Shown here: positions 36,001 through 39,000 of the stretch, piece by piece
How the letters are laid out: each line of letters opens with the position of its first letter
Position numbering within the stretch: position 1 is the first letter of the stretch
From: a virus
Lineage: Duplodnaviria; Heunggongvirae; Uroviricota; Caudoviricetes
DNA length: 64,000 nucleotides
Virus record (IMG/VR): IMGVR_UViG_2880395615_000002
Direction: 5' to 3' (one strand)
Made by a program: the position numbers

Positions 36001-39000
36001 AATTCACGCTCAACATACCGATCCATCTCAAGCCTCACTCCCAGCATCATCAGCATGCCTTCAACAATCCCCTCCGCTTTGTGAAGGCGTTTACCTATAC
36101 AGGTGTCAGAGCACCCATGTTTCCGTGCCAGCGCCATGAACGTCCCCCCCAGCACGTAATAATCAACCAGCAAGTCATGCAGATCGCGATTGTTCCGGTA
36201 AAGGCGGGCTATACACCCGCATATCACCATCGCATCATCGTCACAGCACTGCGGGCGTGATTTTACTTTTTCGGGGATCAGTCCCTTAAATCCGGCGGCA
36301 ATGGGTGACCAGGTCACATCCTCATGGTTATTTGCCGCCCATGCCCCCCAGCACTCAAGAACCTGCCGGATATCACGCATCAGTATCTTTACCCCATCCG
36401 CGATGAACCATAAGAACACCGTTGACAATAGCGTGTCTTTTTCCTTCTTTATCGCCAGTGTATTTTCTGACCGTGTTGCGACTACAGTTCAGTATTCTGG
36501 CTACCTCGGTCTGATTTTCATATGCCTCAACGAGCATGTCAGGAATGGTTTTTACTGTGAACGTCATGCGGCCTCACTTCTGCTGTTTCGCAGGTCTTTA
36601 AGTTTCTGCTGATACTTCGCCTTGATCGCCCTGCATTCTTCGACAGTCCAGCGATGGCGGTTATGGTTCGATTCGATTTCGTCTACTGCTTCCTGCCCGA
36701 TGCGGTTAATCAGTTCGACGCGATACGGAACGAGATTTCCGCTTTTGTGCTGGTTGCACACCACGCATTGCTTGTGAATATTGCGTTCATCAAATCGGAG
36801 TTGAGGTGTCGCAGCAGTTGTCCGGTAATGTCCGGCATCCCACTGAGCAGACGTGAGCGTTCCGCACGAGATACATGGTAAGTCGCGGTCTCTTTCTCTG
36901 ATGAAGGCGTTTACGGCTTGTTGGGCTTGTTTAATCCAGTAACTGCGGGGCTTTAAGGCGAGTTTTCGAATCTTCAGTTTATCTTTCTGTTTCTGCTCCT
37001 CTCGTCGTCGTTTCTTCTCTGCTGCCTTTTCTGCCTTTTCCGCTTTTTCGCGTTCTTTACTTCGTCGTTCGAGTGCTATCTTGGTTCCACAAATCTCATT
37101 ACACCAATATTGATTTTGATATTTTGGTATAAACCATTCATTGCAACATTTACATTTCCTTCGATAGATTCGCATAAGTGCTCCTTTCGTTGCCGGAAAA
37201 ATCACCGTAATACTTATCTCGGGCTTCTTCAGCAACTAGTACCGCTAACTCCAGATCATCAAAGCATCCGAAGTGTTTACTCTTGCCATGGAATCCTAGC
37301 CTAACATTCCATTTTTTCTGTCGTTTGTGCCAAGTAACCCCTCTGCAACCTGATTTGCTATTCTTTCGGATCCTTATATTTCTTGAATTTTCTATTGGCA
37401 GGCATTCTCTTAAATTTTCTGGCCTATTGTCGGTCCTAATTCCATTAACGTGGTCAATTTGACCAGCAGGCCAACGATTATGAGTTATGTAAAAAACTAA
37501 GACGTGAGTTTTATATCTACGCCCATCTATCATGATCATTGAATAACCGTTGGAATCAAAAGCTCCAGCAACACTATTTAATGCTATCCTTCCCTGAGTG
37601 GGAACTTTCCATCTAAATACCCCGGTAGATTTATCGAAACTTAGTAACTCAAATATCCTTTTAACAGTTAAATCTTCTCTTTTACGGTTACATCGTCTTC
37701 GCGCTGGTTTAGCCATCGCCTTCTTCCTCCGTAATGGTTTTCTGAATTTGGCCACCTGAACAGAGCTCACCAAAGCTATGGATGTCGGTATTTCCACAAT
37801 ACCAAGATGGCGAAAATAACTGCATGATAAGCCTCAGGGAAAAGGGAAGACACTACCCCCGATAATTCAGAAACAAATCGAAATACATGAACTAAAGAAA
37901 AAACCACAACAAACAGAAATAGAAATAGAAATAGAAATAGAAATAGAAATAGAAATAGAAATAGAAATAGAAATATTAAAACAGACCACCACATTCCTGA
38001 TGTCATACTCACTAAACAATTTTTCGACAACATGGTAGCTCATAGAACGTTATCGTGTAGACACCCTCTGCTACGTATTCGGTGTTCAGTGCAATATCTA
38101 CAAATACTGGAAAAATCTAAAATCGAGGCAAGTTTTTGGTGATAACTATAGTTAGACTATATTGACGACCTGATGTGCTGTATGTAATAACTAACAAAAA
38201 ATATTTTCCATGGGATTTTTTATTTTAATGAAATGCAAAATATTTTTATCAATAGTTAGTATTATGAAAAACCATTAATTCAGGAGGAAACTTGATTCCA
38301 AATTCAACTTCAAATAAAGGTTATGTATGCATTGACATGCAGTGTTCGTCAACCTCTGAACCAACAGCTTCTACCTCCAGCAACCGGAGTATTAAATTAG
38401 CCGCTTCCACAAATGTATATCCGATAACAAGAAACGACTCCGAGCTCACTCTGAACGATTTTCTTGATAATAGCTCTTCTACGTCATCATTGGACTACAT
38501 TAATGAATTGGGTTCTCAACTGACGTTAAATGATTTTCTTGACAACATAAAGACAAATGAGGTGGATAGAACATGTACGGATGTGGTAATTAATATCCCA
38601 CAAGAGATACAAACAAATACACAGGAAAATGATTTGTTATTATCCGATAAAAATAATTCAATATGCATTGAAATCGATGAAAGAATTACAAAAATCCTAA
38701 CATGCAAGCAAAAATATCAACTGGACAGCATCATTCATGAAATTATACCAAAAGAGAATGAGAGTGCAGAAACTGTTCTCCATCTTATGAGAGTTCTGAA
38801 CGATCAATATCATCAGGTATATAATCAGTCAGGATGTTTTTATAAAGCCTATATGGCCATACACAATAAAATCGAACAGATACTTCCATATGCGTTCAGA
38901 GCCGGAGGCGGAATCAGCATTCACTTGCTCATACAGGCATTATTTTTTAATGGCGACTATAACAAATCACCTTCACAGTCTCAACAACCATCTTTATATA

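Follow-up and report, generated by a model that had tools for sequence, protein, structure and literature searches.

What does a perfect hexanucleotide microsatellite of ten units do in a coding-dense phage genome? The question is raised by a stretch of 64,000 nucleotides from the IMG/VR virus record IMGVR_UViG_2880395615_000002 (Caudoviricetes), the whole of which is referred to here as the window, in which an uninterrupted (AGAAAT)10 tract is located at 37915-37974, between an HNH endonuclease gene and a gene of 590 codons that we call the cargo gene. An initial annotation of the window considered such a tract unusual in a phage genome, took its length to change by slipped-strand mispairing and suggested that it is a length-variable regulatory element or a recombination hot spot. 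Here, we report that, judged from its flanking sequence and primer sites, the repeat is a copy of an already known typing locus of Escherichia coli O157, i.e., the variable number of tandem repeats (VNTR) locus named O157-9, VNTR-9, TR1 or Vhec4, and that it is probably a mutation-driven slippage VNTR in a non-coding spacer, without a dedicated regulatory or coding function.

The tract was confirmed both by reading of the sequence and by Tandem Repeats Finder, which extends it slightly (37911-37975, period 6, 10.8 copies, 98% matches, score 123). A regular-expression scan of the whole window found (AGAAAT)10 to be the sole perfect repeat with a unit of 3-9 bp and at least four copies, the other matches being dinucleotide or mononucleotide runs of 8 bp only; a perfect hexamer array of 60 bp cannot be a chance occurrence in 64 kb (order of 4^-54 per position). 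It is 83% A+T, and its end is 317 bp away from the TTG start of the 590-codon open reading frame (ORF), close to the 320 bp estimated initially, with the HNH gene on the other side as described. The AGAAAT motif itself is not special, because a scan of genome contigs with (AGAAAT)4 matched more than 120 unrelated bacteria and was uninformative; the same scan of viral contigs became informative only after flank filtering. Coordinates of all features are collected in Table 1.

Identity with the O157 typing locus

The window is a lambdoid prophage carrying Shiga toxin 1a (Stx1a), presented against its early-right operon. Two forward primers of published schemes for multiple-locus VNTR analysis (MLVA) match the left flank of the repeat exactly: that of PulseNet VNTR-9 (primer sequence in PMC3321953 Table A1 and PMC10062581 S5 Table) and that of TR1 in the Noller scheme, for which the repeat unit is given as AAATAG (PMC2246123 Table 2). 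VNTR-9 is equated with Vhec4 and TR1 in PMC3321953, which also gives the repeat length and reports 6-23 repeats, 15 alleles and a diversity index of 0.90, the highest of eight loci, together with null alleles at 31.7%. The typed locus and the window thus have in common the 6-bp unit, the left flank with both forward-primer sites, the adjoining HNH gene, the first 15 bp of the right flank, the copy-number range and the diversity. They differ in context: the canonical O157-9 locus lies in a defective prophage and is cut by IS30 15 bp to the right of the repeat, whereas the window copy lies in a Stx1a prophage and keeps an intact right flank and the 590-codon gene. On these comparisons, the window copy is an intact, IS30-free paralogue of the typed locus, or its ancestral state. 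As other published typing loci (EHC-1/2/5/6, EH111-8, EH111-14, EH26-7 and O157-10) the window copy was considered and rejected, with no primer match.

The structure of the canonical locus was read from its occurrences in complete genomes, where a chimeric query made of the left flank and the IS30 end found it in 281 genomes, almost all O157:H7. One example (locus L003), read in the plus-strand sense of the window, has the HNH gene, the ninF-like ORF, the repeat and ATTAAAACAGACCAC in this order, followed by the inverted repeat of IS30, whose end TGTAGATTCAATTGG stands directly after the 15-bp flank. Its HNH protein is 100% identical to that of the window, its left flank is 99.5% identical, the first 15 bp of the right flank are common to both, and the prophage in which it lies is defective and has no early region. 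The reciprocal half was found in strain SMN013SH2 (locus L234), i.e., the 3' end of IS30, the dinucleotide AC, the right flank and the 590-codon gene. O157:H7 keeps the left half and SMN013SH2 the right half. Both arrangements would fit a single insertion of IS30 that duplicated 2 bp of its target, with later deletions next to the element on one side or the other.

Neither of the published reverse primers was found in the window at up to three mismatches; both fall in the 5' end of IS30. The window lacks this element, so that the published primer pairs would give no product from its copy, and the IS30 location of the reverse primers probably accounts for the null alleles of VNTR-9 reported in PMC3321953. 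From about 2003 on, epidemiological work on E. coli O157 has used the repeat routinely as a marker (in PulseNet, the Japanese national scheme and elsewhere), and the fact that both forward primers bind the window-type paralogue is relevant to in silico MLVA from assemblies. Our literature search found nothing on a tandem repeat in the nin region of Stx phages with an HNH endonuclease, nor on VNTR-9 in connection with a prophage or on a mutation rate under the name O157-9.

Copy-number variation and slippage

The initial annotation had suggested comparing repeat copy number across isolates, and the number is not invariant. Of 5426 complete E. coli genomes, 523 have the locus according to a query with the flanks only, which is not biased by copy number; both flanks are present in 244 of the 523, and copy number was read in about 130 of the 523. 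Stx1 prophages of various E. coli strains, O157 and O111 among them, carry the intact paralogue, as do related E. albertii prophages. Among loci with flanks about 99% identical, drawn from complete E. coli genomes and IMG/VR prophage contigs, the tract varies from 4 to 23 units with a Simpson diversity of about 0.9. When loci with both flanks were sampled evenly down the similarity ranking (n = 27), we found 5-15 copies with a median of 10 and a Simpson diversity of 0.92; the canonical O157:H7 locus (n = 60) gave 4-18 copies, a median of 11 and a Simpson diversity of 0.906; and 42 loci read base by base had 4-16 units. Alleles of 16, 17, 18 and 23 copies appeared in the first similarity search, and the 23-copy allele of strain 7_15_5C was verified directly (23.8 copies). 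Even within one strain, 644-PT8, the two copies of the locus differ, with 11 and 8 units, respectively. The initial claim of a length-variable tract is therefore well founded.

Several observations point to slipped-strand mispairing as the source of this variation, as proposed initially. The variant units AGAAAC, GGAAAT and AGAAGT occur occasionally in the 42 loci, GGAAAT being triplicated in one of them (L082) and AGAAAC having been duplicated as well, and duplicated variant units are a signature of slippage. Allele lengths have no preferred classes and form a broad, single-peaked spread. In serial passage, Vhec4 changed at about 4.3-4.6e-5 per generation, and both repeat-number changes seen were insertions of a single unit (PMC3777172). 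Please note that this mutation rate is a published value, whereas the identity with the MLVA locus, the polymorphism, the genomic context and the lack of a conserved ORF come from the present analysis. The O157:H7 copy, which has lost the cargo gene by an IS30-associated deletion, is nevertheless equally polymorphic, and its variability is therefore independent of selection through the cargo gene.

Coding potential of the tract

The locus has been listed as "inside ORF Z3935/Z3936" (PMC3321953), and the Prokaryotic Genome Annotation Pipeline (PGAP) draws an ORF of 60-84 amino acids through the repeat in some genomes, e.g., WP_001430471.1, which is absent from the annotation of others. Translation of the minus strand would give (IS)n, (FL)n or (FY)n from the repeat, depending on the frame. 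Among the 42 near-identical loci (about 99%), at least 19 chimeric ORF forms pass through the repeat, because gains or losses of one nucleotide in the homopolymers beside it exchange the (IS)n and (FL)n frames and the tails attached to them; base-by-base reading showed the register of the lead sequence shifted by +1 or -1 in about 10 of the 42. The first ATG of the E. albertii-type lineage leads into another frame than that used in E. coli. Family scans of the ORFs through the repeat gave no protein family match, and reading of the sequence found none of their start codons with a well-spaced Shine-Dalgarno sequence. Because the frames are swapped among near-identical loci and no family is matched, we conclude from these comparisons that the tract is non-coding, and the "inside ORF" annotation of the locus is very probably spurious.

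The proposed explanation and what weighs against it

Taken together, the tract sits in a spacer of AT-rich, non-coding nin-region DNA between the ninF-like ORF and HNH gene on the minus strand and the 590-codon gene on the plus strand. Slipped-strand mispairing in replication would change its length by whole 6-bp units, which would produce the broad, single-peaked spread of 4-23 units among otherwise near-identical prophages, and any effect of the tract on neighboring genes would be incidental. We consider this explanation likely, and three observations weigh against it. First, the E. albertii-type lineage (L048, L056 and L232) keeps a pure array in flanks that have diverged by 8-14%, which could reflect selection for the array or simply self-sustaining slippage. 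Second, the frame MTSGMWW[S/P]VLI(FL)n is open in both diverged lineages. Third, (AUUUCU)n on the early-right transcript is G-free, pyrimidine-rich and unstructured, i.e., it is composed as one would expect a Rho loading site to be. Slippage in a non-coding spacer would still leave room for a modest incidental effect, e.g., through H-NS binding or Rho loading; this is speculation on our part.

Possible regulation of the cargo gene

Of the alternatives, the one that survives best is that the tract is a length-variable transcriptional regulator of the cargo gene, acting, e.g., through nucleation of H-NS or Ler or through the geometry of the upstream DNA, and we regard it as unlikely. The tract is hypervariable, AT-rich and located between divergent genes, upstream of one that was horizontally acquired and is itself AT-rich. 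H-NS and Ler control effector genes outside the locus of enterocyte effacement, and the cargo family was found only in enterics with type III secretion, i.e., E. coli, E. albertii, non-Typhimurium Salmonella and Providencia alcalifaciens. One paralogue with 71% identity is located in a chromosomal island of E. albertii and adjoins an NleF-like gene and an EspJ-family effector gene; the Salmonella and Providencia homologues are at about 50%. However, no tandem repeat was found upstream of the E. albertii chromosomal, Salmonella or Providencia homologues, and the sequence that precedes the E. albertii paralogue bears no relation to that of the window.

The distance to the candidate promoters also speaks against such a regulator. 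A strict consensus scan of 37600-38500 gave no promoter at threshold and only a weak terminator-like hairpin. A looser weight-matrix scan predicted weak candidates only, of which the best on the plus strand all fall in 38123-38197, inside a block that is kept in both the E. coli and the E. albertii-type lineages, with predicted transcription start sites at about 38160-38197. These candidates are 150-220 bp to the right of the repeat, which would thus sit at about -185 to -285. The 95 bp between the conserved block and the cargo start codon have strongly diverged. In addition, steps of 6 bp do not keep phase with the DNA helix, no allele-length classes are preferred, and no promoter controlled by a simple sequence repeat is known in E. 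coli. The strongest argument against a role in cargo regulation, in our view, is that the O157 copy remains equally polymorphic after loss of the gene. The initial suggestion of a regulatory element does not hold up well against these results: the 6-bp unit lies outside any credible ORF, the candidate promoters are remote, and cargo homologues exist without the repeat.

Two known systems invite comparison. The contingency loci of Haemophilus, Neisseria and Campylobacter resemble the window repeat in having a hypermutable short repeat that changes by slippage and adjoins a horizontally acquired gene that may act on the host. There, however, the repeat either lies within an ORF and has a unit that is no multiple of three, or lies between or close to the -35/-10 elements, and switches the gene on and off; the window repeat, built of 6-bp units, is located outside any conserved ORF and at a distance of 150-220 bp from the candidate promoters, is not kept with the cargo gene family, and persists in its O157 copy without the gene. 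A further parallel may be nadA of Neisseria meningitidis, in which a TAAA tract, a distal repeat upstream of the core promoter, reportedly modulates transcription. Like this tract, the window repeat is AT-rich and upstream of a putative core promoter, and its copy number could in principle tune transcription; it differs in the larger distance, in having no known regulator site and in being absent from other members of the cargo family.

Several further observations concern the cargo gene and its surroundings in their own right. The protein belongs to PHROG 9230 (category "function unknown") and has no match in Pfam, NCBIfam, PADLOC or PDB; an exhaustive profile search placed its family in 18 clusters among 1.84 billion representatives, and none of five distant members scanned has a Pfam domain. 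Its AlphaFold2 model is unusable, with a mean predicted local distance difference test (pLDDT) of 39, and roughly the first 120 residues are rich in Ser and Thr, with disorder predicted for them. The protein is a candidate for a new secreted effector. Within the conserved block, the perfect palindrome and the TTGACG that directly follows it may be the operator and promoter of the cargo gene. Rfam gave no family match at the repeat or its flanks; the one match in the scanned region, a sub-threshold hit to the plant microRNA family MIR1444 downstream of the cargo gene (40094-40161) scored 27.9 bits against a cut-off of 80 (E = 0.02) and was rejected as chance.

RNA-level readings

That the tract is a tunable cis element of the prophage, either by loading of Rho or another RNA-binding factor or by seeding of H-NS silencing of the antisense cargo gene, appears to us still less probable than cargo regulation as such. 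If this were true, slippage would generate lysogen subpopulations that differ in basal Q/Stx1 or cargo expression, and a hypermutable repeat would be linked to within-population variation in the behavior of a Shiga-toxin prophage.

The specific version at the RNA level, to which we give very little credence, holds that the tract is a tunable RNA element of the PR transcript, on which Rho loading grows with copy number and sets the N-independent transcription that reaches Q. Gene order and orientation would permit this, the tract lying within 2.7 kb of antisense RNA that is not translated and directly precedes ninF-HNH-ninG-ninH-Q-stx1. The nin region of lambda has terminators that are overridden by N, and artificial pyrimidine repeats can act as Rho-dependent terminators. 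The minus-strand RNA (AUUUCU)n, in which UC recurs at intervals of 6 nt, contains 17% C and 0% G; the prediction is that it stays unpaired, and it folds no better than shuffled sequence (z = +1.4). However, C makes up only one base in six, well below typical Rho utilization sites, which are unstructured stretches of about 60-80 nt or more with C in excess of G, the long AT-rich antisense RNA upstream already gives Rho many entry points, N-modified polymerase ignores Rho in lytic growth, and there is no comparative support for such an element.

Recombination and the remaining alternative

It is likewise very doubtful that the tract is a hot spot of recombination or rearrangement that marks the boundary of lambdoid mosaic modules. 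The repeat does sit at the left edge of a low-GC insertion, IS30 is found 15 bp away in about 280 O157:H7 genomes, and the deletions took opposite sides in different strains. Against this, every one of the 244 genomes with both flanks keeps them colinear, linkage of the HNH gene and the repeat holds in 523 of 537 genomes, and the right flank occurs by itself in a single genome, a case explained by IS30. The rearrangements nearby begin at IS30 ends and not within the repeat, so that this part of the initial annotation finds no support either. Least probable of all is that the repeat codes for a variable stretch at the core of a small protein, as an (Ile-Ser)n or hydrophobic (Phe-Leu)n dipeptide repeat: a 6-bp unit does preserve the reading frame, PGAP calls an ORF in some genomes and one (FL)n frame is open in both lineages, but the calls are inconsistent, and neither frame, start nor C-terminus is conserved among the chimeric ORFs described above, which also lack a family match and a well-placed ribosome-binding site.

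Context in the nin region

Gene names in the window were taken from a 100%-identical locus (L001) of E. coli O157 strain 644-PT8, which is annotated in the order NinE, 590-aa gene, HNH, NinG, NinH, Q and stx1. On the minus strand of the window, from high to low coordinates, the order is NinB, a Dam-type methyltransferase, NinE, the ninF-like ORF, HNH, NinG, NinH, Q and stx1A/B. In phage lambda, ninE and ninF are adjacent, whereas in the window they are separated by a low-GC block (28-39% GC versus about 50% in the flanks) that carries the 590-codon gene on the strand opposite to the early-right operon. The overlap of the stop codon of the ninF-like ORF with the next start codon is the arrangement of the lambda ninF/ninG junction, and 37688-37733 matches this junction in lambda, P22-like and many other lambdoid phages; the resemblance of the ORF itself to lambda NinF is confined to the C-terminal tail (E = 0.038).

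The HNH gene, annotated as HNH endonuclease WP_001108081.1 in both L001 and L003, was rightly described as an insertion: its ORF has taken over the start codon of NinG together with the nine residues that open that protein, MAKPARRRC, and the NinG displaced by it comes next. This HNH allele was found in 537 of 5426 complete E. coli genomes, almost always with the repeat.

Table 1 Positions of the repeat, its flanks and the surrounding features. Numbers refer to the window unless another locus is named.
Feature	Coordinates	Strand	Remarks
Displaced ninG	36564-37178	minus	83% identical to lambda NinG, new N-terminus
HNH endonuclease gene	37150-37716	minus	inserted into 5' end of ninG; PF13392 HNH_3, phrog_99
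PulseNet VNTR-9/O157-9 forward primer site	37701-37727	plus	exact, 0 mismatches
ninF-like ORF, 38 codons	37709-37825	minus	stop overlaps start codon of next gene
Low-GC block	~37750-40450		gene insertion between ninE and ninF-like ORF, from composition
TR1 forward primer site (Noller scheme)	37819-37838	plus	exact, 0 mismatches
A6 homopolymer in A-rich left flank	37898-37903		gains or loses 1 nt between otherwise near-identical loci
Perfect (AGAAAT)10 hexanucleotide microsatellite	37915-37974		AAATAG in the register of the MLVA literature; read from sequence
Right flank, 15 bp, ATTAAAACAGACCAC	37975-37989		common to window and canonical O157:H7 locus
IS30 insertion point	37988-37990; L003 ~6270-6290; L234 ~3495-3505		2-bp target duplication AC
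Conserved block	38090-38196	plus	103/107 columns identical, E. coli versus E. albertii-type lineages
Perfect palindrome TATAGTTAGACTATA (TATAGT-TAG-ACTATA)	38147-38161		directly before TTGACG, 38162-38167
590-codon cargo ORF	38292-40064	plus	TTG start, AGGAGG ribosome-binding site, antisense to early-right operon
Cargo homologues	L228-L231 at 4001-5782; L235; L236
ninE	40568-40750	minus

Other repeats in the window

Three further repeats were noted. At 44117-44194, units of about 20 bp, TCCCTCGTTTTAAGGGAATC, are repeated in tandem 3.8 times and, located within the O replication gene, look like origin iterons of the lambda type. At 27313-27365, 4.4 tandem copies of a 12-bp unit, GATTTCATGATC, give rise to a DHEIDHKTDHEIDHD peptide repeat close to the N-terminus of a protein of 268 aa (ORF 26695-27501, minus), possibly the small terminase subunit. 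Finally, a GC-rich tandem duplication of 45 bp with a 9-bp sub-periodicity at 16694-16784 probably corresponds to collagen-like Gly-X-Y repeats in a minus-strand tail-fibre gene.

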